DNA of 64,000 bases from a virus, in IMG/VR virus record IMGVR_UViG_3300018933_000004, positions 14,791 through 78,790 of that record; one strand, written 5' to 3'. The notes below the pieces were generated by a model that was not told the DNA's origin, made no database searches, and worked only from the letters and a program-made list of their open reading frames with translations. Below, one piece after another: positions 28,414 through 62,372 of this stretch. Position 1 is the stretch's first letter, and each line of letters opens with the position of its first letter. The translations under genes and the position numbers were made by a program.

Positions 28414-28442
28414 TTGCAACGCATCTTTGGATGCGTTACGGT
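28414..28442 (+). promoter_or_regulatory. Conserved promoter/palindrome, copy 1
   Basis: TTGCAA-17-TACGGT with the AACGCATC-TTTG-GATGCGTT palindrome in the spacer. Confidence 0.75.
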
Positions 28443-28482
28443 GGGGGCGTTCCCTTGTCCAGCAACATGAAGGAGGCGCCCT

Positions 28483-28983
28483 GTGGCTCCCAAAAAGCAT
28501 CCGCCGCGCAGGACTCAGGGCGTCAACCCGTACCTGGTCGACATGACCGAGATCCCTCAGACCCCGGCCATCACCGCCGTGCACGAGATCGCCAAGCTGG
28601 CCTTCCAGGTCAGCCAGCTCCACGAGTCACTCGGCGAACTCGTCATCGACGGCACCGAGCTCGGCCTGGCCGAAGGCCAGATGCAGAGCCACGTCATCCG
28701 CGCCCAGGGCAGGCCCTTCAGCTGGCGCTCCCAGCTGACCAGGATCCTGGAGAGGGATCGCGGGTACGACTCCTCCCAGCCCTGGCGCGAGCGCACCAAG
28801 GACATCAGGCCCGAGGAGATCCCCTCCTACCTCAGCCCAGAGTCCGTCGCCGCCATCCGCGAGGGCGTCCAGGCCCTGGCCCGGGTGATCGCGGACGTCG
28901 AGGAGGCCCGCAAGAGGGAGTACCCGGCCGTCCACGCCCGCGCCAAGGCAGCCATCGAGGGCGTCTCCGCCAAGGCCAGCTGA
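28483..28983 (+). CDS. Hypothetical protein
   Basis: AAGGAGG RBS; directly downstream of the conserved promoter. Confidence 0.75.
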   Translation: MAPKKHPPRRTQGVNPYLVDMTEIPQTPAITAVHEIAKLAFQVSQLHESLGELVIDGTELGLAEGQMQSHVIRAQGRPFSWRSQLTRILERDRGYDSSQPWRERTKDIRPEEIPSYLSPESVAAIREGVQALARVIADVEEARKREYPAVHARAKAAIEGVSAKAS

Positions 28984-29082
28984 CAGAACAGCGCCCCCGA
29001 CAGGGTCCCTGGTCCGGACCGAGTCGGAGGCGCTGCGGCGAGGCCATCCACCCGAACATCCCGCCTAGGAGCACAAGCAGAC

Positions 29083-30072
29083 ATGGCCACCATCACCAAG
29101 AGTACCCGCATGGGCGGCGCGCTGTCCCGCACCGACTGGGACAAGACCCTCACCGACGGCGGCATCTACCTCCTCGCCGTCGGCGGCTTCTACGTCGGCT
29201 ACCAGACCCTCTACACCCAGGCCCTGCGCGTCGGCTTCCCCGAGGACCAGGCCGTCGTCGTCGCCGCCCTCGCCGACCTCGCCATCCTGCTGTACTCCCG
29301 CAAGGCCGTCCGCGAGGTCAAGGCCGGACGATCCGCCCGCATCATCCGCACCATCGTCGCCCTCTTCTCCCTGGCCACCTTCGCCCTCCAGCTCCGCGCC
29401 GCATGGGGCGACACCCTCTCCGTCACCTTCCACGCCCTGCCCCCGGCCGTCTGGATCATCGGCCACGAGATGATGCTGCGCGGCCGCCTGCGCGACGCCA
29501 AGGCCGCCCGCCGCACCGCCGAGATCAAAGCAGGCCTGCGCCCCGCCCCCCTGCCACGCATCCGCCGCGCCTGGTGGCTCCTGGACCCGGCCCACACCTT
29601 CACCGTCTGGCGCCTGTCCAAGATGTGGGAGAAGGACCCCGCCACCGTCATCCGCCACGAGGCCGCCAAGCGCCAAGCCGAGGGTAAGGACATCCCCCTC
29701 GCCTGGCAGGGCTTCCTCCTCGACACCCCGGCCCCGGACGCGCCCGTTCGCCACGAGATCTGCGGCGCCGCCACCCTCTTCACGCCCGAGGTCCCCGAGC
29801 TGCCCGCGCCGCCGGTCAGCGCCGTCCTGTACCGACAGTCCAACGACCGCGAAGAAGTCCCGGCCAACGAGGTCGCCGTGTTCCTCCGCACCCTGCCTGT
29901 CGCCCCGCTCAAGGGCCGCCCGAAGGACAAGGCCATGGAGTACATCCGCGAGGTCGAGGCGCTCGGCGCCCAGTACGACATCAAGGTCACCGGCAAGCTC
30001 CTCGCCGAACTGCTCCAGGTCGACGAGGGCCGCGTCTCCAAGATCCGCAAGGACATGGTCCCCACCCCCTGA
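29083..30072 (+). CDS. DUF2637-like membrane protein (Streptomyces plasmid/AICE type)
   Basis: Four TM helices, HALPPAVW, PLPRI..AWWLLDP..TF.VWR, C-terminal HTH-like segment. Confidence 0.7.
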   Translation: MATITKSTRMGGALSRTDWDKTLTDGGIYLLAVGGFYVGYQTLYTQALRVGFPEDQAVVVAALADLAILLYSRKAVREVKAGRSARIIRTIVALFSLATFALQLRAAWGDTLSVTFHALPPAVWIIGHEMMLRGRLRDAKAARRTAEIKAGLRPAPLPRIRRAWWLLDPAHTFTVWRLSKMWEKDPATVIRHEAAKRQAEGKDIPLAWQGFLLDTPAPDAPVRHEICGAATLFTPEVPELPAPPVSAVLYRQSNDREEVPANEVAVFLRTLPVAPLKGRPKDKAMEYIREVEALGAQYDIKVTGKLLAELLQVDEGRVSKIRKDMVPTP

Positions 30073-30143
30073 CCCGCAGTAGCCTGAACAGCAGCAGGGC
30101 CCAGGAGAACGTGACGGATCTCCTGGGCCCTGCTGCCGCACTC

Positions 30144-30503
30144 TCAGAGGGTGTAGGTGTCCCCGTTCAGCTGGTACAGCTCAACAGCCACCCGGCCCAG
30201 CAGATCGTCGCTGGCGCCCCGGTTGCACATCTCTCCCAGGTCCACCCGGAACTGCCGGATCGCCGCCGTCGAGGGCGCCCACCCGCCGTCCGTGTCCTCA
30301 ACCGTCCCCCTGGCACTGGCCAGCAGCGACTCGGCCGCGTCCCACTGCTCGCCGTCGTCCATCCGGCCAGCCCAGTCCGAACACGACCGCGCGCCCGGCG
30401 GCACCTCACTCTGCCCGCCGCCGTCCTCGCCGCCCGGATCTCCGCACGCGGTCACGGTGACCGCCAGCACGACGGCCGAGACGATCAAACCCACTCTGCA
30501 CAT
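30144..30503 (-). CDS. Putative lipoprotein
   Basis: Signal peptide with lipobox VTVTAC; conserved Cys pair. Confidence 0.65.
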   Translation of the reverse strand: MCRVGLIVSAVVLAVTVTACGDPGGEDGGGQSEVPPGARSCSDWAGRMDDGEQWDAAESLLASARGTVEDTDGGWAPSTAAIRQFRVDLGEMCNRGASDDLLGRVAVELYQLNGDTYTL

Positions 30504-30575
30504 CGCTCTCCCCTCCCGCCAAACCCTCCCCGGCCTGGCGGGAGACATTCAACCACCCGCCCCCACCACGAGAAG

Positions 30576-31361
30576 ATGAGCCGCATGACCGCGAAGGCGA
30601 AGAAGGCATGGGACGAGCTGAACAAACGTCAGCAGACCTACATGGAAGCCATCTACCACGCCGACCAGGCCGTCGAGGCAGCCCACCGCAAGGAGGCCGC
30701 CCGCACCTGGAGTAACACCCCCGCCCGCGTATGGCGCCGCCTGCCCTTCAACGGGCCCTACTCTCACATCGCGCCCGCGCTGCGCCACCACAAGGTCTAC
30801 GACACCGGCGCCGGAGCCACCCTGGCAGCGCTCCGCGACCGAGGGCTGATCGAGAGCGAGACCTGGACCGGCCTGCTCACCGACCCGGTCTACGTCTGGA
30901 TCACCCGCGAGGGGCGGGCGGCCGTACGGGCCGGGCTCGGTCTGCAGTCGGCGCGCACCAGCAAGCCCAAGTGGGCCCTGTCGGAGTGGCTCTGGAAGGA
31001 ACTGGTCAAGGTGGCCGCCGCCGGACCCGAGGGCCTCCAGCGCGGAGGGCTCTATGGCGACTCCCACCTCTATCTCTCCAAGGGACATAAAGGCCGCCGG
31101 GGCAACCGCCCCTACGTAGACGGCTCGAACTACCGGTGGGTCACCTACGACGCCTACGTCAGCCTCGGCAGCTCCGAGACGTACAAGAAGTCCGAGCCGG
31201 TGTACTACTACATCCTCACCGACGAGGGCCGCGCCCACTACGCCGAATACCTGGAGCAGTACCGCGAGCTGTACCCGGACATCGACGCCCCCGACCTACA
31301 GGATCCAGGCGGCCAGGAGGACGAGGAGCAGGACGGAGCCCCAGAAGCCGCCGACCAGTAG
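30576..31361 (+). CDS. Hypothetical winged-helix-like protein
   Basis: GATLAALRDRGLIE...VWITREGRAAVRA resembles wHTH ends; Streptomyces plasmid-type protein. Confidence 0.65.
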   Translation: MSRMTAKAKKAWDELNKRQQTYMEAIYHADQAVEAAHRKEAARTWSNTPARVWRRLPFNGPYSHIAPALRHHKVYDTGAGATLAALRDRGLIESETWTGLLTDPVYVWITREGRAAVRAGLGLQSARTSKPKWALSEWLWKELVKVAAAGPEGLQRGGLYGDSHLYLSKGHKGRRGNRPYVDGSNYRWVTYDAYVSLGSSETYKKSEPVYYYILTDEGRAHYAEYLEQYRELYPDIDAPDLQDPGGQEDEEQDGAPEAADQ

Positions 31362-31457
31362 CAGGGCAGCGCGGACGTACGGGTGGTGCGGTGTGTGGCG
31401 GGTCACGGCGTCCAGTGTGCCCTGGAATCTCCGGCTCCACCGAACGGGCCGGGAAAG

Positions 31458-31495
31458 GCCGAAGGCCCCCGAACGAGTCAACGGGGGCCTTCGGC
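31458..31495. terminator. Terminator hairpin between convergent units
   Basis: GCCGAAGGCCCCCG / CGGGGGCCTTCGGC. Confidence 0.75.
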
Positions 31496-31556
31496 TGCTT
31501 GGGCGCCTTGAGAGGTGCCTTCAGCGTTGCGATCCTCGCCCTGGGCGGATGGCTGT

Positions 31557-31630
31557 CTGCAACACCCCGCATCGGCGGGGACAACTGCAAGCAGTCAGCC
31601 GGGACATCCCCGCTGACGCGGGGGAATCAC
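31557..31630 (-). CRISPR. Two type I-E-like repeats separated by 15 nt (mini-array or solitary-repeat-like); no cas genes in window
   Basis: Minus strand: GTGATTCCCCCGCGTCAGCGGGGATGTCCC and GTTGTCCCCGCCGATGCGGGGTGTTGCAG, both with the CCCCGC-N4-GCGGGG stem and I-E-like flanks. Confidence 0.5.
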
Positions 31631-31727
31631 CTCACGGCGGCAAGGTGACCGGCCCGGTCCCAGGGCCCGTGCCGGTAAAAAGAACTCTAGCGGCTCCGGG
31701 CTGTTGGTGCGGGCGAGTTGGAGAGAT

Positions 31728-33149: not shown

Positions 33150-33157
33150 GGTGATCC

Positions 33158-33310
33158 TCCCCGGATACAGCTTCTTTAGACAATTGCCAAGCCATCACCC
33201 TAGATGCCGTCGTGGTGCCCGTGCACGGAACAGTGCGGGGCGGCGCCGCGCGCGCACTTCTCTGAGAGGGGCGTGGCTCGGCGATTGTCTAAAGAAGCTG
33301 TATCCGGGGA
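33158..33310. repeat. 27-bp perfect inverted repeat pair with 99-bp spacer
   Basis: TCCCCGGATACAGCTTCTTTAGACAAT (33158-33184) / ATTGTCTAAAGAAGCTGTATCCGGGGA (33284-33310). Confidence 0.9.
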
Positions 33311-33494
33311 AAACGCGGTGACACCCGGGGTGGTTCACGAAGGATCGACGGCTGGCGGACCGCGTGGCGGAGAACCCGATCCTCCCACGGCCAGCACGGC
33401 GAACGCCAGAAACGCCGCGCCGTATCGTGTGGTCCATGCCCCGGCCTGCGTCAGTTCCTCCCCGACGGCTGACCGCTGCCGATAAGCTCCCTCC

Positions 33495-33908
33495 ATGAGG
33501 AGCACCGAGCCCGATCAGCCCGCCGACCCCGCCGACTTCCCTCCCGAAGTGCGGGACGCCCTGCGCAAGAGGAGTGAGCGCGGCCCCGTGGTCGATATGG
33601 CCACAGGCGAGCGCGTCGCCGAGGACGGCCGCCTGGTCTCCGACGAGCAGCTGGTCGCCTGTCTCGAATGCGCCCGCGCCATCGCCCTGGGCTGGTGGGG
33701 CGCCATCGCACGCCACTTCGGCAATCCCGATGCCCCTGTCTGCGCCCTGTGCGGCGAAGGCGAAGCCACCCTCACCCCCACCCAGTGGTTCGCCCAGGTC
33801 ACCCAGCTCATGCAGGCTCACATCGCCGCCGGGAAGCACCACAGCTGGCGTGAGGACTCTCTCACGCGCCTCGGCATCGCCAGCCCGGGAGCAGACGGCC
33901 GTGGATGA
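33495..33908 (+). CDS. Hypothetical protein
   Basis: 137 aa, two CxxC motifs. Confidence 0.6.
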   Translation: MRSTEPDQPADPADFPPEVRDALRKRSERGPVVDMATGERVAEDGRLVSDEQLVACLECARAIALGWWGAIARHFGNPDAPVCALCGEGEATLTPTQWFAQVTQLMQAHIAAGKHHSWREDSLTRLGIASPGADGRG

Positions 33909-34275: not shown

Positions 34276-34329
34276 CACCACCGGCGCGGCGATAGTCTGA
34301 GCCCACTCCATCCCGCCAAGGAGACGCTC

Positions 34330-34848: not shown

Positions 34849-35061
34849 GACGTCAGCGGCCCCGCCGGAGCGCACCATCGGGGGGGGAGGATCGTACGCA
34901 GCATCGGCGGGGCCTGGGGAGCGTGTACCCGGGTCTCGTTTGTTCATGCGCGCGCACGACAGACCCCGCTCCTGCGCCACAGAGGAGGGGTGGGGGCGCA
35001 AGAGCGGGGTCTGGCTCTGGGGGGTCAGCTCATGGGGACTTGGCGTTCAGCGGTGGTCGCG

Positions 35062-40486: not shown

Positions 40487-40807
40487 CTACAGGCTCAGGA
40501 AGCCGTGCTTGCGCAGGAGCGCCGCCACGGCGTCGGGCTCCATGCCGAGGTCGGTGGCGAGTCCTTCCGGGGACCTGGCGGGACGCCCTCGTGAGTACGT
40601 GCCGTCGCCCTGCCGCGATTCCAGCCAGCCGTCGCGCTTGAGGAGTTCCAGGGCTCGCACAACTGTCGGCCGGGACATGCCGTACTCCTGCGCCAGCCAT
40701 GTCTCGCTGGGGATGCGGGTGCCCGGCGGGTACGTGCCCGCCTTGATGTCCTGCTGGAGACGCTGTGCCAGCGCCAGGTACTTCGGTGGGGTCATCTCGT
40801 AGGCCAT
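40487..40807 (-). CDS. GntR-family HTH regulator (no effector domain)
   Basis: PKYLALAQRLQQDIKAGTYPPGTRIPSE..LAQEYGMSRPTVVRALELLKRDGWLESRQGDGTY. Confidence 0.9.
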   Translation of the reverse strand: MAYEMTPPKYLALAQRLQQDIKAGTYPPGTRIPSETWLAQEYGMSRPTVVRALELLKRDGWLESRQGDGTYSRGRPARSPEGLATDLGMEPDAVAALLRKHGFLSL

Positions 40808-40832: not shown

Positions 40833-40846
40833 ACTGGTCAACCAGT
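40833..40846. promoter_or_regulatory. Putative GntR operator palindrome
   Basis: ACTGGT-CA-ACCAGT just upstream of the gntR-like gene. Confidence 0.5.
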
Positions 40847-41531
40847 CTTTCGGTAACGGAGGTTACCGCAACTATCGAGGTCCGGCAGGCGAACGAAACG
40901 GCCCCCTCCGCTGGCTTGGGAGGGGGCCGCTGCTCGCGCCCGCCGTGGGGAATTGCTGCGCCCGGCGTACCGGCGGGTTCCCAGCGTCGGTGTCCGGCGA
41001 GCCTGCGGGCCGACGTGGAACCTTCCCCACGGTGGTGCCGTCGCGAGAGGGGCGTGGTCCTGTCCGCCAGGGCATGGAGTCTGTTCCCTCGCGACGGCGC
41101 CACCACAGTACCGGCTCAAGGGCGGCGGCACAGCTTCTCCACGACGCCTTCACGCCAGGTACCGCAACCACGTTCGAGCACCCGTCGTTGACGTTGTCGG
41201 CGGCATAGTCATGGCCGTTCCACGCCTCGAACGAAGGTTCGATAACGTGGGGCGCAGGAGGAGGGAGGTGGCCCGAGCCGTCCGAGCGCAGGATCGCTCT
41301 CACAGAACTGTGTCGACATCAAGAGGTTGAGAAGTTGAGGGTCGCTCAACATGCACTCAACCTGCTCAAACGTTGCACCCGCCCCCTGCTTGGGATAGGT
41401 TCCGGATGCCTTGACATTCAACTATCTGCCTCGATGTGTCGTGAGATCGCCCGGCACCCGCCACCGGGCGAATAACACCATCGAGAGAAGTAGGCGATAC
41501 CTCCCGCACATTTCGAGAGAAAAGGCAGGCA

Positions 41532-42113: not shown

Positions 42114-42317
42114 TCAGCCGGTCACGCCGCCGACGAACGCCGACCACGCGGCCGGGGAGACGGTGACGATGGGGCTCTTGGCGACGTCCTTGCTGTCGCG
42201 GATGTCGACCGCCGTGACGGCGCCGCCCGCCAGCTCCTTGCGCGTCTCGATGCAGGCCTCGCCGGACCCGCCGCTGTAGGAGGACTTCATCCACGGAGTG
42301 GTGCGCTTCTCGGTCAT
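42114..42317 (-). CDS. DUF397 protein
   Basis: WMKSSYSGGSGEACIE...VDIRDSKD...AWSAFV. Confidence 0.92.
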   Translation of the reverse strand: MTEKRTTPWMKSSYSGGSGEACIETRKELAGGAVTAVDIRDSKDVAKSPIVTVSPAAWSAFVGGVTG

Positions 42318-42341
42318 GCTGTACCTCTTCCAATCTCGTTG

Positions 42342-43214
42342 TCAGCCCACAAGTTGCTTGCGGGCCTCGTGCAAGTATCGACGACTGTCGGCCGGTGACA
42401 ACGCCTGGCCCTGGAGAGATTCGTATCTGACTCGATATGAACGGACTCGTTCCTCATCGTCGATGAACAAGCCATCTCCGTACCCTTCGCGGAACACCAT
42501 GTCAACGTTGACGTCGAATGTCAGGATGCTGAACGACCCCGACAGTCCTGAGTGCAGACCGGTATTCATGGGGAGCACCTGGATCTGGACCTGGGTCTCC
42601 CCCAGGTTGAGCAGGTGCTGGATCTGGTCTGCGTGAGCCCTCTTGTCGCCCGGCCGGGGCGGCGTCATCACCGCAGCCTCACCGAGGACGGCCCAGATGC
42701 GCGGAGGCAGCGGATTCTCGCGCCGCAGGAGGTCCTTTCGGGCCTCGCGCAGCTTGAGCAGGTCCGCCTGACGGCTGCTGTCGACGGGGTGCACCGTCGC
42801 ATCCGTGCTGATGACGGCCTGGGAGTACTCCTTCGTCTGGAAGAGGCCGTATATGACGTCCGGCTCGAAGACGCGCATGCCCTCGCACAGCCACTCCGCG
42901 CTGGCGTAGTCACTGAACGTCGGGCCGGGCGTGTTGTCGAACGTCGTCCAGGGGCCTTTCTGCTTGGCCAGCTTGGCCCACTTCAGCCACCTGTCGATCT
43001 CTTCCGGGTCGGTGACCCCGTACAGCTCGGCGTACCGGGGCACCAGATCGGCGCTGACGGCGGCGATCCCTGCCTCGTGCCGGTAGATGGCGGGCACGGA
43101 CAGCCCCAGCGCTTCCTTGACGGCCTCGACCTTCACCCCGGCGGCCAGGCGGGCGCGCTTGAGCATGTTGCCGAGGATCAGTCGCCTGATCGTCGGCCGT
43201 GCGTTGTATGCCAC
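42342..43214 (-). CDS. XRE-HTH + DUF5753 regulator (WhiJ/Scr1-like)
   Basis: RRLILGNMLKRAR HTH; GLFQTKEYS; WAVLGEAA; QIQVLP; GSFSIL. Confidence 0.9.
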   Translation of the reverse strand: MAYNARPTIRRLILGNMLKRARLAAGVKVEAVKEALGLSVPAIYRHEAGIAAVSADLVPRYAELYGVTDPEEIDRWLKWAKLAKQKGPWTTFDNTPGPTFSDYASAEWLCEGMRVFEPDVIYGLFQTKEYSQAVISTDATVHPVDSSRQADLLKLREARKDLLRRENPLPPRIWAVLGEAAVMTPPRPGDKRAHADQIQHLLNLGETQVQIQVLPMNTGLHSGLSGSFSILTFDVNVDMVFREGYGDGLFIDDEERVRSYRVRYESLQGQALSPADSRRYLHEARKQLVG

Positions 43215-43416
43215 TCATCCTCCCCTGTCGTGGCGCGCTGGGCACAGTCTGCACCCCGGGAGCGGGAGATGACCAACGCCCGTACTGAGGATTATCACCC
43301 GGAAGGGCTTGCGTAGATGAGAATTCTCCGCAACGGTGGGTAACAGCCTGCTTGCGCCAGGTACCGCAGAGGCGTGAGCCGGTCTCATCCGCCAACCCTG
43401 TCTTGGGAGTTACCTC

Positions 43417-43968
43417 ATGCACTCCCCGCCTCACCAGGGGCCGCCACCCCTGGGCAATCTGCGCCACATGCGCTACCGCGAGTTCTATCCGCTGCGGGAC
43501 CAGAGCGTTCCGCAGGCCCGGCATGAGTTCCGCGCCGCCGCCTTCCGCAGCGACCTGGACGGCGGCGTCGCCGAAGCAGCCGAGATCTGCTTGTCGGAGC
43601 TGGCCAGCAACGCCGTACAGCACGCCGACGACCCCCGGCCTCGCCGCTGGTTCCATGTCAGCTGCAACGTCCTGGGCGTGTACCGCCGGTACCTGCTGAT
43701 CGGCGTGCACGACGTCGACAGCGGGCACATCCCCCGGATGCCCCGCGTCCCGGTTGACCCCCTCGACGCCTTCGATGACGAGTCCGAGTCCGGGCGCGGG
43801 CTGTTGCTCGTCGCCGGACTGGCCACCGCCGTCCGCATCGAACACGGCCCCGGCGTCAACGGCAAGACGATCTGGTGCCGGTTCGACCTCCCCGTCGGTC
43901 CTCCCACGCTCGGCAACCGGCTTGTGCCCCTCTCCCGCCAGGCCAAGCCCTCCTCCCCCGTCGTCTGA
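43417..43968 (+). CDS. HATPase_c-family ATP-binding (anti-sigma-like) protein
   Basis: SVPQARH, LSELASNAVQHA, ESGRGLLLV, GKTIWC. Confidence 0.88.
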   Translation: MHSPPHQGPPPLGNLRHMRYREFYPLRDQSVPQARHEFRAAAFRSDLDGGVAEAAEICLSELASNAVQHADDPRPRRWFHVSCNVLGVYRRYLLIGVHDVDSGHIPRMPRVPVDPLDAFDDESESGRGLLLVAGLATAVRIEHGPGVNGKTIWCRFDLPVGPPTLGNRLVPLSRQAKPSSPVV

Positions 43969-43990: not shown

Positions 43991-44019
43991 TTGTAACGCA
44001 TCTCGATATGCGTTACGGT
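43991..44019 (+). promoter_or_regulatory. Conserved promoter/palindrome, copy 2
   Basis: TTGTAA-17-TACGGT; GTAACGCAT-CTCGAT-ATGCGTTAC. Confidence 0.8.
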
Positions 44020-44141: not shown

Positions 44142-44963
44142 ATGGACCCCGTTTCCCTTGATCAGCTTTTCCATGAGCTGCGTTCCGTGGAGGCGGAAAC
44201 CGCCACCGTCTCCGCCGCCGATCTGACGCCCGGTTATGTCATCGCCTCCGGCGTGATGGACCGTCACGTCATCGCCGGAAAGCCGACGTCGGATTCCGTC
44301 TCCCGCACTCTCTCTTTCCCGGCCCGCCACCTCCACGGCGGCCACACCGTCCCGTACGTCGTCGGCGAGCGCGCCCAGGTGCGCGTCTACGCCGCCCGCG
44401 TCGGCGCGTCGACCGTCCGCGAGGTACCCGAGGTCCCGGTGTGCGTCATCCCCGACGCTCCGGCCGTCGGGGACCGCGTCGTCCTCCAGCCCTACGTCGC
44501 CCACGCCCTCGGCGTCGCCGACGTCCGGGAGTTCACCGGCCAGCACTGGGAGACCCTTCGGCCCAGCGGCGCCGACCCCATGTCCGTGACCGTCATGCGC
44601 GACATGGTGCGACCGTCCTCCGTCGGCACCCTCACCGGCTGGTACGTCTACCTGCCCGCCGGTCAGCGCCCGTACCTGTACGCCGACGGCCGCCCGGTGC
44701 CCGCGCGGGGCATCGACGGGCTGACCGAGGGCGATGTCATGCTCGTCCCCGGCGGAGGCCGCCTTCAGGTCGAGGGCATCACCCGGCACGCCGACGGCTT
44801 CAGCCTGCGCCTGCGCGTACTGGTGCCGTCCCGGCACGAGATGCGCCACCTGACCTGGGCCAGCGAGGCCGGTGACCTCGTCGAACACCACGACTCGGGC
44901 CTGCGGGGCTACCTGTACCCCACCGAGATGCGAGCCGCCGAGCTGACCGCAAAGGCCGCCTGA
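44142..44963 (+). CDS. Hypothetical protein
   Basis: AGGAG RBS before ATG 44142. Confidence 0.7.
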   Translation: MDPVSLDQLFHELRSVEAETATVSAADLTPGYVIASGVMDRHVIAGKPTSDSVSRTLSFPARHLHGGHTVPYVVGERAQVRVYAARVGASTVREVPEVPVCVIPDAPAVGDRVVLQPYVAHALGVADVREFTGQHWETLRPSGADPMSVTVMRDMVRPSSVGTLTGWYVYLPAGQRPYLYADGRPVPARGIDGLTEGDVMLVPGGGRLQVEGITRHADGFSLRLRVLVPSRHEMRHLTWASEAGDLVEHHDSGLRGYLYPTEMRAAELTAKAA

Positions 44964-44994
44964 CCTGCGCCTTTAAACAGACTGACCCAACGGC

Positions 44995-45025
44995 TTGACG
45001 AACGCATCTCAAGATGCGCTAGGGT
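44995..45025 (+). promoter_or_regulatory. Conserved promoter/palindrome, copy 3
   Basis: TTGACG-19-TAGGGT; AACGCATCTCAAGATGCGCT. Confidence 0.75.
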
Positions 45026-45062
45026 GGGGCCCGTTGAAGTCATTCCCGCCAAGGAGAACGCC

Positions 45063-45881
45063 ATGACCACCACCGAAACCATCGACCCGCGCACCCTCAC
45101 CGACCGACTCGGCCGCGAGATCTTCGAGTCCCTCTTCCCGCACGGCGGCCCGGAGATGGGCGCGCACCGCGCCGACCGCCAGGTGCCCGAGGAAGTCCGC
45201 CTGCCGAAGGTCGAGGGACCGCAGGGCGTCAAGGTCGACGACATCGTCCTCGTGGTCGACAACGAGTCCTGGACCAGCACCCTGGACCGCTTCAGCGCCC
45301 GCGAGGCCCTCAAGCACCACGGAACCTGGATCGGCCGGGTCCGCAAGGTCAGCCCCAAGTCGATCGTCGTCGACCACGTCCGCGAGCCGCGCCGCCACAG
45401 CTTCAGCGCCGACCTCGACGACTTCGGCTCGCCTGCCCACAAGGACAACGGCGAGCGCCTGATGTTCAGCCACGCCACTCGGGAGATCGGCCGCATCGGC
45501 ACGCTGGCCGAGCTGCGCGAGAAGATCGCCGCCCACCCGAAGCTGGACGAGTGGCGCACCGCGCGCGCCGCCGCCATCGACGTCGCCCAGGCGGAGAACG
45601 CCAAGGCCAAGGCCAACCGCGAGGCCAAGGAGGCCCGCCTGACGACGGTGAAGGCGGCCATCGCCGGACTCAACGAGATCGCGGGCGAGCCCCTGGTCGA
45701 GCCGCTGACCTTCAGCGACACCGTCGTCGGGGTGACCCGATGGCTGCATGAGGGCGACTTCCGTCGGCTGCGCGTCTACCTCACCGGACTCCACGCCCTC
45801 GGTCAGCTCACCGGCGCCCAGCACGAGCAGGCCCTGAAGCACCTGGACACGATCATCGCGTACGCCAAGGGGGAGAAGTGA
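45063..45881 (+). CDS. Hypothetical protein
   Basis: AAGGAG RBS before ATG 45063. Confidence 0.75.
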   Translation: MTTTETIDPRTLTDRLGREIFESLFPHGGPEMGAHRADRQVPEEVRLPKVEGPQGVKVDDIVLVVDNESWTSTLDRFSAREALKHHGTWIGRVRKVSPKSIVVDHVREPRRHSFSADLDDFGSPAHKDNGERLMFSHATREIGRIGTLAELREKIAAHPKLDEWRTARAAAIDVAQAENAKAKANREAKEARLTTVKAAIAGLNEIAGEPLVEPLTFSDTVVGVTRWLHEGDFRRLRVYLTGLHALGQLTGAQHEQALKHLDTIIAYAKGEK

Positions 45882-46381
45882 GCGCCCCGCGCGCCTGCCA
45901 CTCCTGCGGCCACGACTCGGCGTTCGTCCGGCGGGTGCGCTGCGGTCGCTGCGGCGACCAGGTACACCCGACGTGCCGGGACATCACCGGAACCTGCTAC
46001 CAGTGCCGTTACCGGCAGGCCCATGCGAACGGCATCGTCGGCGACATGCTGCCGCCGGGCCAGGCCGGGGAGGAACCGTTCAAGGGCAACCAGCCCACCA
46101 CCGTTGCCGAGGGGCAGCCGCTGCCGAAGCTGGCCACCTACCAGAACCCGTTCGGCGCCAGCGCCAACGCCCTGCGTATCGCCACTGCCGCTCTCTACGC
46201 CGGGTGGCACGTCGAGGGCTGGGAGAGCGGCAGCGACCGCGTCATGCTGCGGAAGAAGGGCCGGGGCTACCTCCGTCTCACCTTCACCTGCACCGGCCGC
46301 CTCATCCGCGCCGACACCCAGCGGCTGTACCTCACCCCCAACACCAACCGCGTCCTTGAGTACCTGGAGGCGCCAAAGTGA
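45878..46381 (+). CDS. Hypothetical zinc-finger protein
   Basis: CHSC, CGRC, H.TC, CYQC; GTGA-coupled. Confidence 0.65.
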   Translation: MSAPRACHSCGHDSAFVRRVRCGRCGDQVHPTCRDITGTCYQCRYRQAHANGIVGDMLPPGQAGEEPFKGNQPTTVAEGQPLPKLATYQNPFGASANALRIATAALYAGWHVEGWESGSDRVMLRKKGRGYLRLTFTCTGRLIRADTQRLYLTPNTNRVLEYLEAPK

Positions 46382-46665
46382 CCATGCCGCGTAAGAACCC
46401 GCCCGCGCCGGGCAAGTACTGCGACGCCACGAGGACCCGATATCCGGCCCCGTGCAATGACCCCGCCGTGTGGATCGTCTTCTATGCCCACAAGCGCACC
46501 GGCGAGAAGAAGCAGAAGAACGCGTGTGGTGGCCACCTGAACAAGTTGCTGGCCGACCTCGTGCCGGAGGCCGAGTACTCGCGCGAGATGTTCCGCGTTA
46601 TCCCGTGGGCCACTGCCCTTGCGGAGTACGACAAACGGACGACCACCACGGCAACCACCGCATGA
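46378..46665 (+). CDS. Hypothetical protein
   Basis: C...C...CGGH; overlap-coupled. Confidence 0.6.
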   Translation: MTMPRKNPPAPGKYCDATRTRYPAPCNDPAVWIVFYAHKRTGEKKQKNACGGHLNKLLADLVPEAEYSREMFRVIPWATALAEYDKRTTTTATTA

Positions 46666-46949
46666 CCACTGAGCAGCAGGAGAGCAGGAACATGAGTGGA
46701 TTCCCCAGCGGCAAGCCTGCCGAGCGCTTCACGGGCGCGGGCGCCTATGGGCGTCCCGGGCAGTACGGGAGGGCGCTGCCCGATGACAGCGACATCACGA
46801 GCGCGTCCGTTGCGGACCTGGTCGTGACGTTCTGCTCGGTCATGGAGAGCATGCATCGGACGAACAACACGTCGTCGCTGGCGGACCTCGGCCGGTATGC
46901 CGGTCGGCTCTGGTGGGAGATGACCGGCCGAGGCGTCGAGTTCAAGTGA
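46662..46949 (+). CDS. Hypothetical protein
   Basis: ATGA-coupled at 46662. Confidence 0.5.
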   Translation: MTTEQQESRNMSGFPSGKPAERFTGAGAYGRPGQYGRALPDDSDITSASVADLVVTFCSVMESMHRTNNTSSLADLGRYAGRLWWEMTGRGVEFK

Positions 46950-47197
46950 CCGGCGAGACCTGCGGCGCCGAGCACCCGGAGAAGCCCGGCACGCTGTGCA
47001 CCCGCGAGCCGCACCACAACCAGGGCTTCCACGCCGAGCGCCACACCCGCACCATCTGGCCCGCCGACCCGCTGCCCGCTGTGCAGGGCAGCGGCCGGGC
47101 TGCCCTCGCCGCCATCGCGGCCCGCACCACCCGACACCACCACACCGGCCCCGCCAGCGAGGCCGTCACCACCTGGAGAGACCGCCATGGGGACTGA
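46946..47197 (+). CDS. Small Cys/His protein
   Basis: GTGA-coupled; CGAEH...CTREPHH..GFH. Confidence 0.5.
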   Translation: MTGETCGAEHPEKPGTLCTREPHHNQGFHAERHTRTIWPADPLPAVQGSGRAALAAIAARTTRHHHTGPASEAVTTWRDRHGD

Positions 47198-55826: not shown

Positions 55827-57314
55827 ATGACCGACAAGATCAAGCCGCTCACCCTCCACTTCGAGACCTCCCCCTGCGGCCGTTGCGGCGGTAGCGGGAT
55901 GTTCGGCCCCAAGAGCGTCAAGGGCGGTGTCTGCTTCACGTGCAGTGGTAACGGCAAGCTGCTCACCCGCCGGGGCAAGACCGCCCGCAACCGGTATGAC
56001 TCCCTGCTCGTGGAGCGCCTGGGGCGTCGGGTGTGGGAGCTGGCTGAGGGTGACGTGGTGTGGTCGCACTACTCCGCCTGGGCCGGGTTCACCCCCTACG
56101 ACTCCCCCAAGGCGTGGCGCACGGTCAAGTCGGCCACGTACACCCCTGAGAGCGGCTCGGCGCAGATCATCAAGAACGATGACGGCACCGAGGAGCGCAT
56201 TCCGCACGCCGAGGGGCGCGTGGTCTTCGTGGCCCCCGAGGGTAAGGCCGAGCGCAGCGTAGGTGTGGCCTCCACCCCCGAATACTTCGAAACGTGGCTG
56301 TTCCCCGTGTACGACCGCGCGGTCGTCGAGGAGATCATGCGGCACGTCGCCGCGAAGTGCACCGGCGCCTGGCTGGACGGCGAGGAGCCCCCGGCGCGCC
56401 CCGTGCGCAAGCCGCGCAAGCCCAAGACGGAAGAGCCCGTGAAAGAGGAGCCCAAGCCGCTCGCCGCCAACGTGTACCCGGGCGAGTGCCGCAAGTGCGG
56501 CGGGCACGTCGAAGCCAAGGCGGGCGAGCGCGAGCGCGTTGACGGCCGCTGGGAGGTCCAGCACAAGGACGGGGAGTGCCAGGAGCGCCCGGCCGTCGAG
56601 GAGCCCCTGACGCTGGCCGAGGTGCTCGGGGATGACGTGCTGGGTCGCCGCACCTTGAACGCGCTGCGCGCCAAGGGGGTTGAGACGGTGGCCGACGTCC
56701 GCGCCAAGGGGGTTGCCTGGATCCTCGACTGGACCGGAGTCGGCACTAAGGGCATCAACCGTCTCGCCGAGCGTCTCGGTCTTGACGACCCCCAGGGGCC
56801 CCAGGAGCCCGCCAAGGAGACGCCCGCCGAGGAGACGCCGCAGCGCGAGGAGCGCCCGGCCATGGCGAACAAGTTCGGCGGACGCTGCGCCGACTGTGAC
56901 GTCTGGGTGGAGGCGGGCGAGGGCGTGCGCGTCAACAGCCTTGGCCGCTGGATCACCCGCCACAAGGACGGCGAGTGCGTCAAGGACACCACGGTGAAGG
57001 TGACCGAAGAGGGCCTGTACCGGATCCCCGGCGGCGCCACCCCGCACGCCGACGTGTTCCGCGTCCGGCTGTCGGAGCGCTCCGGCCGCCTGTACGCCGA
57101 GCGGTTCGTGCCCCACACCGAGGAGGGCGGCGGCGCCCGGTTCGTGTACGACCCGGCCGCCGTCTACCGGCTGGAGCCCGCCCACCGCATGACGGCCGAG
57201 GAGGCCGCCGACATCGGCCGGAAGCTCCACACCTGCATGCAGTGCGGCGAACACCTGACCGACCCCAAGAGCATCGCCCGGGGCATCGGCCCCGTCTGCG
57301 CCAAGAAGGTCTGA
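55827..57314 (+). CDS. Multidomain protein: DnaJ-type Zn finger, RNAP alpha-CTD-like HhH, DUF6011-like C-terminus
   Basis: CGRCGGSG/CFTCSGNG; LGRRTLNALRAKGVETVAD...GVGTKGI; CMQCGEHLTDPKSIARGIGPVC. Confidence 0.7.
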   Translation: MTDKIKPLTLHFETSPCGRCGGSGMFGPKSVKGGVCFTCSGNGKLLTRRGKTARNRYDSLLVERLGRRVWELAEGDVVWSHYSAWAGFTPYDSPKAWRTVKSATYTPESGSAQIIKNDDGTEERIPHAEGRVVFVAPEGKAERSVGVASTPEYFETWLFPVYDRAVVEEIMRHVAAKCTGAWLDGEEPPARPVRKPRKPKTEEPVKEEPKPLAANVYPGECRKCGGHVEAKAGERERVDGRWEVQHKDGECQERPAVEEPLTLAEVLGDDVLGRRTLNALRAKGVETVADVRAKGVAWILDWTGVGTKGINRLAERLGLDDPQGPQEPAKETPAEETPQREERPAMANKFGGRCADCDVWVEAGEGVRVNSLGRWITRHKDGECVKDTTVKVTEEGLYRIPGGATPHADVFRVRLSERSGRLYAERFVPHTEEGGGARFVYDPAAVYRLEPAHRMTAEEAADIGRKLHTCMQCGEHLTDPKSIARGIGPVCAKKV

Positions 57315-57392
57315 CCCCCTGCACCACCACGGCGCCCGGTACGACCGCCGGGCGCCCACCCGACCACGACCACACCAGAAAGGGCACAGATC

Positions 57393-57743
57393 ATGAGCAG
57401 TGCGCCGACCGCCCAGACGCCCGCCCGCCGCCCGTACAACGCCGCCAACGTCGCCTACGTCGACCAGGGCACCGTCATCACCGCCGTGTGGGTGTCCGAC
57501 CCCGCCATCGACCCGGCGGAAGCGCTGGACAAGATCCTTCACCGTGACCTGCCGTACGAGGTGGAGGAGATCGCGGAGGCGACGCGCTTCTACAAGAGCG
57601 AGGGGGCCACGTTCTCCGGCTGGATCATCCGCCAGGCCAGCAACGGCAACCACAGCACCGAGCCCATCGCCAACAAGCGCGCCGCCATGAAGGAGCTGCG
57701 CGGCTGGGTCGAGGGCTACTTCGAGCGCAGGGGGAACAGGTGA
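57393..57743 (+). CDS. Hypothetical protein
   Basis: 116-aa ORF after AAGGG RBS. Confidence 0.65.
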   Translation: MSSAPTAQTPARRPYNAANVAYVDQGTVITAVWVSDPAIDPAEALDKILHRDLPYEVEEIAEATRFYKSEGATFSGWIIRQASNGNHSTEPIANKRAAMKELRGWVEGYFERRGNR

Positions 57744-58367
57744 CCACGGCCAACGAGGGATACGCCCCCGTCGACTTCGCGGACGTCGGCGAAGGGGACG
57801 TGCTGAGGTTCGTCACCAGAGACACCGGCTACGGCGGCCGGGGACTGTACGTCCGCGACGGGCGCGTGATCGCCGTGACGCCGAAGACAGTGCGCCTGTG
57901 GTGCGACGACGACACCCCCAGGGGGCACCGTGGCCGTACTGCGCCGCGCCGACTGGAACGGCCGCGCCGTGCTGCGCAAGGTCGCCAACAAGCCCGCCGA
58001 CGCGCCCAGGACGTACACCTACACCGCCGAGACCTACGGGGACACCCCGGGCGAGTATGTGACGCGGGAGTTCACGATCACGGGCCCGCTGTACCACGGG
58101 GGTGGCCGCCGACTGCGCGAGGGTGATCAGCTCACCGCCGGGCGCCGTACGAACCCCTGGGGTGACGAGGGGGCCAGGAGCCGCTACGTCCACTTCACCA
58201 CGCGCCTGGACGTCGCCGCCGAGTACGCCAGGCAGAGCGGGGGCCACGTCTTCGAGGTGGAGCCGACGGGGCCGTTCTCTGTCGGCTACGGCGGCGAGGA
58301 GTACAAGACCGAGCACCCGCTGAACGTCGTGCGGCGGCTGGCCCCCCAGGAGTGGCACGACGCCTAG
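57740..58367 (+). pseudogene. Frameshifted (or two-part) gene with C-terminal Arr-like ADP-ribosyltransferase domain
   Basis: The frame from 57740 joins the frame of 57930-58367 if one G is removed from the G5 run at 57921-57925; LYHGG...EGDQL...VHFT...VFEVEPTG. Confidence 0.6.
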
Positions 58368-58430
58368 GCCCGCCCCGCTCGCGACGACCCCGCCAGAATC
58401 GCCAGACACCCCAGGAGAGGACACACAGCC

Positions 58431-58829
58431 ATGGCGCTGGAGACCACCACGGAGACCTACACCCGCACGACCCTGCGCGACGGTACCCGCGTCGTGGGCG
58501 TGGTCGTCGGCAACGAGGAGGAGGGATACCGCGCGGAGCACTGGATGCCCGCCCTCACCGATGGACGTTGGTACGGCGCCTACGAGGTGGAGGCGTGCCC
58601 GTCGGGCGAGTGGGACACGGTGGCGGATGCGCTGGGCTGGCTGAGGGACCGCTACGCCCTGGAGAGCCACAAGTACGCCGACCGCCCGCAGCAGCCGAAG
58701 ATCTCCAGCACCGTGCCCGCCCAGGACGCGCCGAGGGTGACGTGCAGCGCCCACTACGGGGAGCACAGGCAGGGGGAGGACTGCGAGGAGCCCAAGGGGG
58801 CCCAGGGAGCGCCCCAGGGGGCCGTGTAG
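58431..58829 (+). CDS. Hypothetical protein
   Basis: GAGAGGA RBS; 132 aa. Confidence 0.65.
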   Translation: MALETTTETYTRTTLRDGTRVVGVVVGNEEEGYRAEHWMPALTDGRWYGAYEVEACPSGEWDTVADALGWLRDRYALESHKYADRPQQPKISSTVPAQDAPRVTCSAHYGEHRQGEDCEEPKGAQGAPQGAV

Positions 58830-58993
58830 CCACCCCCTGGGGGCACGAGGGGCCCAGGGCAGGGGCAGAGACGGCGAGCCCGCCCCTGCCGTCTGTATGG
58901 GCTTGTGCGCATATAGGACAGAACGGTTACCCCCGCGAGGGGGCGAAGAGGGGGCCGGGGCCGGGCGCCCGGAATCCTGGGGCACCCCTGCGC

Positions 58994-59022
58994 TTGTAAC
59001 GCATCTTGAGATGCGCTACCGT
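58994..59022 (+). promoter_or_regulatory. Conserved promoter/palindrome, copy 8
   Basis: TTGTAA-17-TACCGT; AACGCATCTTGAGATGCGCT. Confidence 0.8.
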
Positions 59023-59061
59023 GGGCCACCCCGCCAGACAGACAGAGACGAGGAGCACCGA

Positions 59062-60795
59062 ATGGGCGAGATCATCGACATCAAGCGCAAGCCGACCACC
59101 GTGCAGGTCGAGGCGCTGCGCAAGGGCGCGGTGCAGCGCAACGGGATCATCGCGCTGGGAGACCAGAACGACCGCACCCAGGAGGGCCTGGCGCGCCGGG
59201 GCATGGGTGAGTGGAGGTCGGCGACGGACATGGGCGAGCGCGGTACGCACTCGTGGTTCGTGATCACCCAGCGCGGCCGGGACTACCTGGCCAAGGGGGA
59301 GCGGGTCGCGGCGGAGGCGGCCGAGGAGCGCCGGGAGTCTGCGCCGGTGGTGTCCGGGAACGTGTGCGCCGAGTCGACAGAGTCGTGCTCGGGTGCGGTG
59401 GAGTACCGGCGTACCGGTACGCATCGGCGGGGGGCGTACCTGTGCGTGGTGCACGGTGGGGCGCAGCGTGCTGCGGTGGAGGCCGTGAGCGCCCCCGTGG
59501 CGGCCGAGGAGCGGGCGGAGCTGCCCGAGGTTCCGGAGAGTGCTGCGCCGCGCAGCATGGCGGATGCCATTGCGTTCCTGGGGTCTTTGAAGGTGGGTGA
59601 CCGGGTGCGGGTGACGCGTGAGGGGCGCACGGCGGATCTGACGGTGTCTCGGGGGCCGCGCCGTTCCGATGGGGCGTTCGGGTCGCCGGAGTCGCTGGGG
59701 GTGACGGTGTCGTACGGGGTGGGGCGTTACAGCTTTGAGGTAAACGCTGGGCATCTGTTCGCGCAGCGGGCGGGGCGGCACACCACCTACGGGGGCACCC
59801 GCATGATGCGTCTGCCCGCTGAGGCGCCCGCGCCGAAGACGGCGGCTGACAACGCGTCGGAGGTGTCGGCTCGGTTCGCTGCCCGCCAGAGGGGCCAGGA
59901 GGGCGTGGAGAGGGACATGGGGAGCATGAGCGAGCCGGAGCACGCCAGCGCGCTCAGTGCCCGTTTCGCTGAGGCGCAGCGCCCGGGGGGCGTGGGTGAG
60001 TCCGAGGTCGCCGAGGACGGTCGCGCGGTCGGCTTCTACGTCACGGTGCGCCACGGCAAGCAGCGGGGGTTCCTGCTGGGCCCGTACGCGACCAAGCAGG
60101 ACGCGGACGGCAACGTGAGCCGCGCCCGTCGGCACGCCGAGGAGCAGGTCAACGAAGCGTGCTTCTACGAGTACGGTACGGCGCGCGCCGTGGCCAAGCC
60201 TGGCCGTGCGCTGCCGGAGGGAAAGTTCAACGACAGCATCGGCCTGCGGGCCGAGGAGGAGGGGGAGACCGTGAGCGCTGAGGAGACGCCGGTGGAGCGG
60301 ATCAAGCGGGCCAGGACGGGGGCGGGGGTGCTGGGGGCGCTGCGCGCGCCGCATACTCCGCACGGGGATGCGGGTGACCGGGTGTTCACCATTGAGGTCA
60401 CCACGCGTGTGGTGAGCGGTGAGGCGGAGTCGTGCCGCTTCGAGGGTGAGGGTGACCCGGAGCACGAGTGCACGGGGGACTGCACGTCGCTGGAGGGGGA
60501 CGTGAGGGAGTTGGAGGCGCCGCGCACCGAGGAGGTCACGGCCGACGGGGATGACCTTGAGGTGTTCGGGGGTGACCCGGTGGCGTGGGCGGTGGATTAC
60601 ATCCGGACCAAGACGGATGCGGTGGAGCCGTCGGCGAGCCCGGTGGGTGACAGGGCGCGTGAGCACGAGTGGCTGAGCGGCGTCTACGTGGACCCGTACG
60701 ACAACAGTCGTGAGACGCACACGAGCGTGCGCCTGACGGGTGACTGGTCCGAGGAGGAGCGGGCGCGGGTGTTCAAGGGCGTGCGGGGGGTCTAG
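59062..60795 (+). CDS. Large hypothetical multidomain protein (G-rich codons)
   Basis: GAGGAG RBS before ATG 59062. Confidence 0.75.
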   Translation: MGEIIDIKRKPTTVQVEALRKGAVQRNGIIALGDQNDRTQEGLARRGMGEWRSATDMGERGTHSWFVITQRGRDYLAKGERVAAEAAEERRESAPVVSGNVCAESTESCSGAVEYRRTGTHRRGAYLCVVHGGAQRAAVEAVSAPVAAEERAELPEVPESAAPRSMADAIAFLGSLKVGDRVRVTREGRTADLTVSRGPRRSDGAFGSPESLGVTVSYGVGRYSFEVNAGHLFAQRAGRHTTYGGTRMMRLPAEAPAPKTAADNASEVSARFAARQRGQEGVERDMGSMSEPEHASALSARFAEAQRPGGVGESEVAEDGRAVGFYVTVRHGKQRGFLLGPYATKQDADGNVSRARRHAEEQVNEACFYEYGTARAVAKPGRALPEGKFNDSIGLRAEEEGETVSAEETPVERIKRARTGAGVLGALRAPHTPHGDAGDRVFTIEVTTRVVSGEAESCRFEGEGDPEHECTGDCTSLEGDVRELEAPRTEEVTADGDDLEVFGGDPVAWAVDYIRTKTDAVEPSASPVGDRAREHEWLSGVYVDPYDNSRETHTSVRLTGDWSEEERARVFKGVRGV

Positions 60796-60885
60796 GAGGG
60801 TCTGGGAGCGCCCGGTGGCCGTGTGGTTGCCGGGCGTTCCTGTTGGGGGCGTGGCGGGGCGTGTGGGCGTGGGGCACCCCTACGC

Positions 60886-60914
60886 TTGTAACGCATCTTG
60901 AGATGCGCTACGGT
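60886..60914 (+). promoter_or_regulatory. Conserved promoter/palindrome, copy 9
   Basis: TTGTAA-17-TACGGT; AACGCATCTTGAGATGCGCT. Confidence 0.8.
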
Positions 60915-60956
60915 GGGCACCCCCGCCAGACAGACAGCAGCAACGAGGAGCACACC

Positions 60957-62249
60957 ATGGCGATCATCTACCGGGACAGCAACGGCAACGAGGAGCGCCG
61001 GGAGTTCGTGGGCGCGGTGCTGGGCAAGCGCGAGCAGAACCTGTACCACGACAGCTACTTTCACGCGATCGTGTGGGACGAAGAGCGCAGCGAGGTGCGC
61101 AGCGTCGAGTACGGGGCGACGGCCTACTACTCGAACACCGGGGTCACGGTGGACGCGACCCGCGAGGTGATCGAAAAGGCCGTGGCGCAGCGCGCGGCTC
61201 AGTACCTGGCCGACTGGGAGCGTGAGCACAACGACACGGTCCGCAAGGGCTACACCGCGCGGGTCACGGTGCGCGGTGAGGGCACCGTGGAGGGCGTTGT
61301 GGCGTGGGAGGCCCGCTACGGCACGCCCACGCCCCGATACGGCATCCGGGTGGAGGGTCGCAAGGGCCTGGTCTTCCGCGACAAGGGCGCCAAGAGCCTG
61401 AAGGTGGACGTCCCCGCGTGGACGGCTGAGGACCGCGCGGAGATGACGGAGCGCGCCGAGACCCTCGCGCGCCACGACTTCAGCGAGGCGCTGCGCCTGG
61501 CGGACGAGCGGGAGCCGCTGGAGCCCGTGCCGGGCCCGGGGACCGTGGTGGACTCCCAGGAGGCGGACGCGGACGGGTTCCGCCTGTACGCGTTCGGGGA
61601 GTCGTTCGCCGAGGAGTCGTTCACGCGGGGTGTGGCGGAGGCCGTGATCGACCAGGGCGCGGCTGGCTACACCGTGACGGGGCGGCGGGCGGACGGCACC
61701 GCGATCACGGCCCGCGAGGTGACCGTGCTCCAGGCGCTGGGGCGTGTGGCGCACTGGGCGGAGTCGGACGTGACCCGCATCGAGCACGACGGGCGGGGCG
61801 TGGTGCGCATGGTGCGCCCGAACGGGGCGCGGCTCGTCCTGGTCCCGGTGTACCCGGTCGTCCCGGCGGCCGGGGAGGGGCCTCAGAAGGCCGTGAGCGC
61901 CCCCGTGGCGGCCCAGGAGCGGCCGGAGGGCGAGGAGGCCGCCGACGGCGCCCGGGAGGCCCTGGAGGCGGCGCGGGGGACGGAGGGTGACCCGGAGTGG
62001 GTGGCGCGCCGGGATGCGGCGCTGGAGCGGGTGCTGCGGCTGCTGGACGGGGAGGCGGCGCGGTACCGGCGGACGGTGATCACCCGTGAGGGTCTGCCGG
62101 GGGCGGGGGACACGCTGCCGACGGATGCGGCGTGGGTGTATCTGGCCGAGGAGGTTGCCGACGGGGGGCAGGTGGAGGACCTGCGGCGCGGCGAGGTGAG
62201 GCTGACGCGGGCGAACGGTGCGCGGCTGAGGTTGAACCCGGTGGCCTGA
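60957..62249 (+). CDS. Hypothetical multidomain protein (G-rich codons)
   Basis: GAGGAG RBS before ATG 60957; N-terminal REQNLYHDSYF.A.VWD motif. Confidence 0.75.
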   Translation: MAIIYRDSNGNEERREFVGAVLGKREQNLYHDSYFHAIVWDEERSEVRSVEYGATAYYSNTGVTVDATREVIEKAVAQRAAQYLADWEREHNDTVRKGYTARVTVRGEGTVEGVVAWEARYGTPTPRYGIRVEGRKGLVFRDKGAKSLKVDVPAWTAEDRAEMTERAETLARHDFSEALRLADEREPLEPVPGPGTVVDSQEADADGFRLYAFGESFAEESFTRGVAEAVIDQGAAGYTVTGRRADGTAITAREVTVLQALGRVAHWAESDVTRIEHDGRGVVRMVRPNGARLVLVPVYPVVPAAGEGPQKAVSAPVAAQERPEGEEAADGAREALEAARGTEGDPEWVARRDAALERVLRLLDGEAARYRRTVITREGLPGAGDTLPTDAAWVYLAEEVADGGQVEDLRRGEVRLTRANGARLRLNPVA

Positions 62250-62347
62250 CGACGGATTTCGTTGTGCGCCCGCTAGGGCGAGCCACGATATTCGTTGCGG
62301 CTCGCCCCTGTGGGTGCGGATTCCGTTGTTTCCCCAAGACCCGCCCC

Positions 62348-62372
62348 TACGCATCCCAAGATGCGCTAGGGT
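62348..62372 (+). promoter_or_regulatory. Conserved palindrome/promoter, copy 10
   Basis: TACGCATCCCAAGATGCGC followed by TAGGGT; -35 not evident. Confidence 0.7.

Follow-up and report, generated by a model that had tools for sequence, protein, structure and literature searches.

A repeated putative promoter with a dyad-symmetric spacer of variable type in the accessory arm of a Streptomyces phage-plasmid family

Control of many separate transcription units through copies of one site is known from the phages φC31 and P1 and the plasmid RK2 and, more loosely, from cluster A mycobacteriophages. In φC31 the c repressor reportedly acts through conserved inverted repeats (CIRs) located in intergenic regions. 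The operators of the P1 repressor C1 are asymmetric 17-mers dispersed over the genome, and the kor regulon of RK2 comprises palindromic operators for KorA and KorB in many promoters. T4-type phages are said to carry modules of an early promoter plus a stem-loop (PeSL), which flank ORFan cassettes in hyperplastic regions. Cluster A mycobacteriophages contain dozens of stoperators per genome together with co-evolving immunity repressors; a stoperator is an asymmetric site of 13-14 nt that a monomer reads, lies within a transcribed region and stops elongation (PMC6550527, PMC9283540). Here we describe what appears to be the same control logic in a further group of elements, based on a 64,000-nucleotide (nt) stretch of viral DNA (bases 14791-78790 of the 79,454-bp IMG/VR record IMGVR_UViG_3300018933_000004, referred to as the window) and on the Streptomyces phage-plasmids related to it. 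The window contains ten copies of a palindrome, each embedded in a promoter-like sequence and heading one or several mostly unrecognised genes.

A reading of the letters alone, which will be referred to as the sequence-only reading, had listed copies of a 20-bp palindrome at 28418, 43995, 45001, 48322, 50505, 53819, 55766, 58998, 60890 and 62348. Searching the window with the consensus given there yielded exactly ten matches with 0-3 mismatches each, every one at its listed coordinate, and none in 100 dinucleotide shuffles (chance expectation 0); the same search detected no extra copy in the rest of the record outside the window. Gene calls were obtained with a GC3-based caller and concur with independent calls on a near-identical contig. 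Against these calls all ten copies are intergenic and on the + strand, 27-366 nt past the upstream stop codon, and the claim of a uniform intergenic position and orientation was thus confirmed. The predicted -10 hexamer TACGGT, TACCGT or TAGGGT follows in all ten, the last T of the palindrome being the first base of the hexamer, and the -35-like hexamer at 17-19 nt, described as usual, is present in nine copies and missing at 62348. The centre of the dyad always precedes the first T of the -10 hexamer by 10 nt, which places the palindrome inside the -35/-10 spacer as proposed. The ten copies are listed below with -35-like hexamer, spacer length, -10 hexamer and the genes downstream.

28414-28442, + strand: copy 1, TTGCAA, 17 nt, TACGGT; palindrome at 28418-28437; heads the unit from 28483 (166-aa protein, then a DUF2637 protein).
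43991-44019, + strand: copy 2, TTGTAA, 17 nt, TACGGT; directly past the HATPase_c_2 gene; heads the 273-aa gene 44142-44963.
44995-45025, + strand: copy 3, TTGACG, 19 nt, TAGGGT; heads the six-gene unit 45063-48235, the last gene with GmrSD_N.
48317-48346, + strand: copy 4, TAGACA, 18 nt, TACGGT; heads the 700-aa gene 48376-50478.
50500-50529, + strand: copy 5, TAGACA, 18 nt, TACCGT; heads the unit 50591-53453 of five small genes.
53813-53843, + strand: copy 6, TTGACT, 19 nt, TAGGGT; heads the 603-aa gene 53885-55696.
55761-55790, + strand: copy 7, TTGGCA, 18 nt, TACGGT; heads the unit 55827-58829, whose products have 495 aa (ending in DUF6011), 116 aa, 145 aa (Arr-like) and 132 aa.
58994-59022, + strand: copy 8, TTGTAA, 17 nt, TACCGT; heads the 577-aa gene 59062-60795.
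60886-60914, + strand: copy 9, TTGTAA, 17 nt, TACGGT; heads the 430-aa gene 60957-62249.
62348-62372, + strand: copy 10, palindrome and TAGGGT without a -35-like hexamer; heads the 541-aa gene from 62404 and a long unit running beyond the window end.

Nine of the ten copies have a Shine-Dalgarno sequence and start codon 34-66 nt beyond the palindrome end. At the copy at 43995 the ATG (44142) is located 127 nt downstream, past a second promoter with the hexamer TAGCGT, and an alternative TTG start is found at 25 nt. The near-identical contig, 154,557 bp long, carries three further copies at window-equivalent positions ~68320, ~69796 and ~75097; the family therefore runs past the window end and comprises at least 13 copies.

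In the window, four of the -35-like hexamers stand 17 nt from the -10, three stand 18 nt and two 19 nt from it, and these nine agree with TTGACA at 4-5 of six positions, the agreement ranging from 1 to 6 of 6 over 50 sites. A gapless alignment of 36 promoters, representing four of the palindrome types described below, revealed invariant columns in GCA, T.C and the T, A and final T of TANNNT (T30, A31, T35). The G following the final T is nearly invariant and the three middle positions of the hexamer vary freely; a G-rich discriminator belongs to the scaffold, and a zone 35-44 nt upstream of the -10 T is mildly richer in AT. Conservation of T, A and final T around a free middle is the -10 signature of the actinobacterial principal sigma factor, as seen in start-site maps of Streptomyces and mycobacteria, and the HrdB-like -10 assigned in the sequence-only reading agrees with it. 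From these features we infer that each copy probably serves as a promoter for host RNA polymerase carrying the principal, HrdB-type sigma factor and that transcription would start just downstream; this is one part of the joint explanation given below.

The 732-aa protein encoded at 20674-22872 is a large terminase, approximately 30% identical to those of large actinophages. Complete records of 154-157 kb are found among the close relatives, whose terminases are 77-92% identical. The circular plasmid pRLB1-9.1 (G001) of Streptomyces sp. RLB1-9, which belongs to these relatives, is annotated with an HK97 capsid protein, baseplate J, ParA, a ParB-like protein and DNA polymerase III alpha; further relatives are a contig of Streptomyces sp. 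MH60 and a plasmid of Streptomyces sp. cg35. The window itself, which originates from a biocrust metagenome assembly, is collinear with 76.5-155 kb of G003. The terminase and the relatives thus identify the window as part of a Streptomyces phage-plasmid of ~155 kb, of which it represents the right half. In G003 the direct terminal repeat turned out to be an assembly overlap of only 77 bp, so that genome ends provide no argument. Orthologues were found on at least 12 contigs of ~150-158 kb from many Streptomyces isolates, the terminase was present in only 2 of 401 species genomes searched, and a metagenome scan using a small conserved protein as query gave no match. Published functional work on this family apparently does not exist, pRLB1-9.1 being mentioned merely as a circular plasmid.

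The exact palindrome of the window is absent from five relatives and from IMG/VR. At the same places, the relatives carry the same promoter scaffold, including -35 and -10, with a different palindrome, and at least five types can be distinguished.

T1, CGCATCT-YR-AGATGCG: the window.
T2, TGCATATCGATATGCA: G002 and G003.
T3, GCAAC-N4-GTTGC: G001, G004 and G005, with ~17 copies in G001.
T4, CGCACT-N4-AGTGCG: G010, G322 and L101.
T5, TGCAYCACGTGATGCA: seen, with other types, at loci reached via a neighbouring gene.

Copy 1 (28418) is orthologous in all types, located before the same 166-aa gene, and carries the palindrome type of the respective relative; the putative operator has therefore been rewritten in place with -35 and -10 retained. 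The place in G003 homologous to copy 6 contains a T2 palindrome. Across types the core GCA-N8-TGC is invariant and mirror positions change jointly, with 54 doubly changed cells compared to 18 ± 3.3 in shuffles (0 of 500 reach 54), a signal that collapses in slid registers. Using a type-blind detector consisting of the invariant core and at least six of eight symmetric pairs, 13, 7, 8, 8, 7 and 15 sites were obtained in six genomes, all co-oriented with transcription, and none in shuffles or in two distant 155-kb relatives, G006 and G007. Those two use other repeated signals: G007 (L065-L072) has ~11 copies of an AT-rich palindrome GATTTTAAAATC upstream of CCTTGGAGTAGAGTGG, and G006 (L057-L064) has a CGCACCGGAGGT leader ahead of ~20 start codons, as well as many tRNA genes. 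The first promoter of pRLB1-9.1 (L030:4816-4858) carries a hybrid operator, its left half window-like and its right half of its own type, which may represent an intermediate in operator turnover.

A conserved promoter with a dyad-symmetric site in its spacer, kept in relatives, makes a co-regulated set of cassettes the best reading, and this part of the sequence-only reading, co-regulation by one sequence-specific regulator, is strengthened by the 36 promoters and the symmetric types; the two regulators it named did not stand, as detailed further below. The explanation as a whole, a repeated host promoter with a built-in, type-variable operator under one regulator, most likely a repressor, appears to us probable, with considerable room left for doubt. 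The scaffold (TANNNT -10, G-rich discriminator, variable -35) would have its spacer filled by a dyad-symmetric operator, and a dimeric protein encoded by the phage-plasmid would read both half-sites. Seated between -35 and -10, this protein would most likely block host RNA polymerase, and at least 13 transcription units (ten of them in the window) of fast-evolving accessory genes would be switched together, being silent during plasmid-prophage carriage, or closed down once an early burst is over, and otherwise active. Operator and reader would have diversified among the relatives into at least five specificity types, and this diversity would make the regulons of co-resident relatives independent, in the manner of immunity groups.

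Symmetric change alone would suit a dimeric protein or a stem, and a hairpin or cruciform, whether it acted in termination or RNA processing, as a hairpin promoter or as an attC-like site of recombination, would likewise keep its stem through the symmetric changes between types. T1 copies indeed fold well as single strands (-6 to -8.4 kcal/mol; z of -3.5 to -5.1), and in some copies the pairing continues into outer stems with bulges. The stability of the fold is not kept across types, however, since T3, with arms of just 5 bp (-3.6 kcal/mol), and T4 fold no better than shuffles. Moreover, deviant copies within a genome depart on one arm only, for example GCAAC with GATGC in four copies of G001, so that pairing is broken on one side and the variants remain uncompensated, and all copies of one genome have a common sequence beyond mere pairing. 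A stable fold kept irrespective of sequence, the mark of integron attC sites and hairpin promoters, was accordingly not found; no T-tract follows the palindrome, and folding would destroy the promoter, as -35 and -10 lie on opposite arms. Because of the shared sequence, the one-arm deviations and the lack of conserved fold stability, a protein site is favoured and a structural function is judged very unlikely; together with the symmetric changes between types, the last two features argue for a dimeric, element-encoded DNA-binding protein of drifting specificity that would bind the palindrome. A host protein of Streptomyces recognising GCA-N8-TGC, with type differences that are neutral drift homogenised within each genome, would explain why the core is invariant in all types and why no element-encoded reader was found. 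Drift of this kind would not keep half-site positions 3, 4, 8 and 9 mirrored in every type, and this proposal seems to us highly improbable. The copies might also be portable homology, promoter modules used for cassette exchange in the manner of the T4 PeSL with the palindrome as a passenger, as the cargo is highly variable in content, is arranged in another order in G003 than in the window, and falls into homology blocks that begin or end at promoters. This leaves unexplained that ten half-site positions stay symmetric while the sequence changes between genomes; being compatible with the operator reading, it is no true alternative, and as the sole explanation it is quite unlikely.

Some observations weigh against a repressor-controlled host promoter. 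No protein was found with DNA-reading residues that follow the operator type, among six candidates in up to eight operator contexts; an E. coli-consensus promoter scan calls none of the sites, which is expected because the -10 boxes are of the TANNNT form; the best -35 hexamers stand at the suboptimal spacing of 19 nt; and three of the 13 copies have no -35. The last two would be compatible, too, with activation by a factor bound in the spacer, MerR-like or of class II, that makes weak promoters fire jointly: the hexamers in question are TTGACG and TTGACT in the window, together with TTGACA in relatives, and the dyad is placed as in MerR-type operators. Nevertheless, spacers of 17, 18 or 19 nt do not correspond to the fixed 19-20 nt of MerR-type promoters, a six-frame search of five genomes found no MerR_1 domain although the positive controls were detected, and actinobacterial promoters often function without a -35. 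We therefore consider activation unlikely and prefer repression through the spacer operator.

As to the regulator, the sequence-only reading had pointed to a tandem XRE protein (8213-8848) and a sigma-like protein (15312-15707), and the DNA-reading helices of both failed to track the operator type. The helix-turn-helix of the latter, which resembles sigma region 4, is identical in phages of all types; the two recognition helices of the former are almost invariant, being identical between the T1 phage and one T4 phage and different between two T4 phages. A WhiJ-like XRE-DUF5753 regulator (42342-43214, minus strand), located beside the array head with DUF397 and HATPase_c_2 partners (triad 42114-43968), fitted four genomes and was refuted by eight further loci, where one and the same helix accompanies both T3 and T1-like operators and a helix of T1-like sequence is combined with T5. 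WhiJ9 of S. venezuelae, the only characterised WhiJ paralogue, binds direct CGxxCTCAAC repeats (PMC10294661), and a cluster of GTTGAG/CTCAAC repeats resembling these is present near the triad at 41325-41371. A 413-aa double winged-helix protein just outside the window does not track the operator type, and the 166-aa protein behind copy 1, which has no match in Pfam, PHROGs or ESM Atlas, is only 47% identical in a relative with the same operator. A GntR-type protein of 106 aa (40487-40807, minus strand) was rejected as well: it is unique to this phage, without an orthologue in five relatives, but just upstream of its gene lies a typical palindrome of its own, the perfect ACTGGT-CA-ACCAGT at 40833-40846, which is probably its operator.

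On the other arm of the relatives, which is missing from the window, an ImmR/ImmA-like pair was rejected because its helix varies within T4. The module containing it (G001 136105-138581, minus strand; orthologues in G002, G003, G010 and G322) encodes an XRE-like protein of 171-196 aa, a HExxH protease-like protein of ~180 aa and a DUF6545 membrane protein; it is a candidate for the lysogeny switch of the family. Past the window end (L094:19540-20348), a cassette encodes a membrane protein and an 81-aa HTH_26 protein and has its own long inverted repeat upstream; no counterpart was found between dcd and the next genes in the annotation of pRLB1-9.1, the sole relative checked. Six-frame searches detected no additional HTH_3 genes and, in five genomes, no match to RHH_1 (PF01402), other families of the ribbon-helix-helix (RHH) class not having been searched. 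Genome-wide screens of 82-91 orthologue families, for columns associated with the operator type and for excess identity within types, yielded no convincing outlier. One may speculate that the reader is a kind of protein beyond current domain models, co-diversifying with the operator across this widespread ~155-kb Streptomyces phage-plasmid family and providing every element with a switch of its own for an arm of 25-45 kb, filled with exchangeable genes for host manipulation or counter-defence, a suggestion we make tentatively and with more doubt than conviction.

In having many copies of one conserved site, intergenic and promoter-proximal, the array corresponds to the φC31 CIR and P1 C1 types of regulon. 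Like φC31, a temperate Streptomyces phage in which one phage repressor controls early transcription units through many intergenic inverted repeats, it couples such repeats to separate units; in contrast, the early promoters of φC31 are reportedly not of host consensus and its CIRs lie outside the -35/-10 spacer, no c-like repressor was identified here, and the present element is a 155-kb plasmid-prophage with unrelated genes, its terminase being ~30% identical to that of any sequenced phage. P1 is likewise a plasmid-prophage and controls many separate lytic and accessory operons by one repressor through promoter-overlapping operators; the present sites differ in being symmetric, in occupying a constant position within a promoter scaffold that is itself repeated and in being concentrated in one arm. 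With RK2 the array has in common short palindromes at fixed positions, which in that plasmid occur in 7-12 promoters and serve the coordinated global repression of plasmid operons, whereas host group and proteins are different, no KorA- or KorB-like reader was found, and the operator type is not mirrored in the partition genes. The joint divergence of site sequence and repressor specificity among relatives that is seen for cluster A stoperators would have a parallel here, yet the present sites are symmetric and located in promoter spacers and hence are not stoperators. The T4 PeSL modules are similar in that repeated early promoters border unknown genes that evolve fast and are found where the order of cassettes is shuffled, but their stem-loop is a neighbour of the promoter and is not claimed to act as an operator. 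New here are the invariant core, the finding that a single scaffold carries at least five specificity types, all of them symmetric, and the rejection of those proteins that would have been the obvious regulators. The promoter-operator scaffold offers a ready map of the accessory transcription units of the family, a set of naturally occurring orthogonal operators that share one promoter chassis, for use in Streptomyces, and, by DNA pull-down with the operator, a direct handle for finding the master regulator.

The genes behind the copies are poorly conserved and, as the sequence-only reading had claimed, mostly unrecognised: Pfam, PHROGs and ESM Atlas name few of the proteins and leave nearly all of them without a name.

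44142-64000, + strand: cargo of nine consecutive units with ~24 genes, in an order that differs in relatives.

In the cassettes downstream of 43995, recognition was limited to GmrSD_N, an Arr-like ADP-ribosyltransferase and DUF6011, and in the unit from 28483 to DUF2637. Content and order differ strongly between relatives, and in the comparison of the window with G003 homology blocks start or end at promoters; variable cargo with block edges at promoters thus fits exchangeable accessory cassettes. The sequence-only reading also proposed immediate-early expression of the units, which may hold, and an anti-defence role of the cargo, which is a guess. One relative carries a Tad2-like gene in the cassette arm, and in relatives an ATP-grasp pair (tgmA/MvdD-like) of the kind acting on ribosomally synthesised and post-translationally modified peptides (RiPPs) is found in the recombinase region (loci of the Tad2-like gene and the pair: L100:5890-6174, G001 69862-71032 and L098:16532-17708).

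Two Arr-like domains, of the rifampin ADP-ribosyltransferase family, are encoded in the window. The one at 25821-27587, after the terminase region, is fused to a 2'-5' RNA ligase-like domain; the other (57930-58367) is a small cargo gene in the unit of copy 7. The 631-aa protein encoded at 11351-13246 contains an intein that includes a LAGLIDADG endonuclease; as the orthologues in relatives have ~280 aa, the intein was inserted in this phage specifically. In most right-arm genes a CCCGCC(A/G) motif is located 10-40 nt upstream of the Shine-Dalgarno sequence, for example at 45045-45051 in the window, and likewise in G001, G003 and G010; as it also precedes genes without a palindrome promoter, it represents a conserved leader element.

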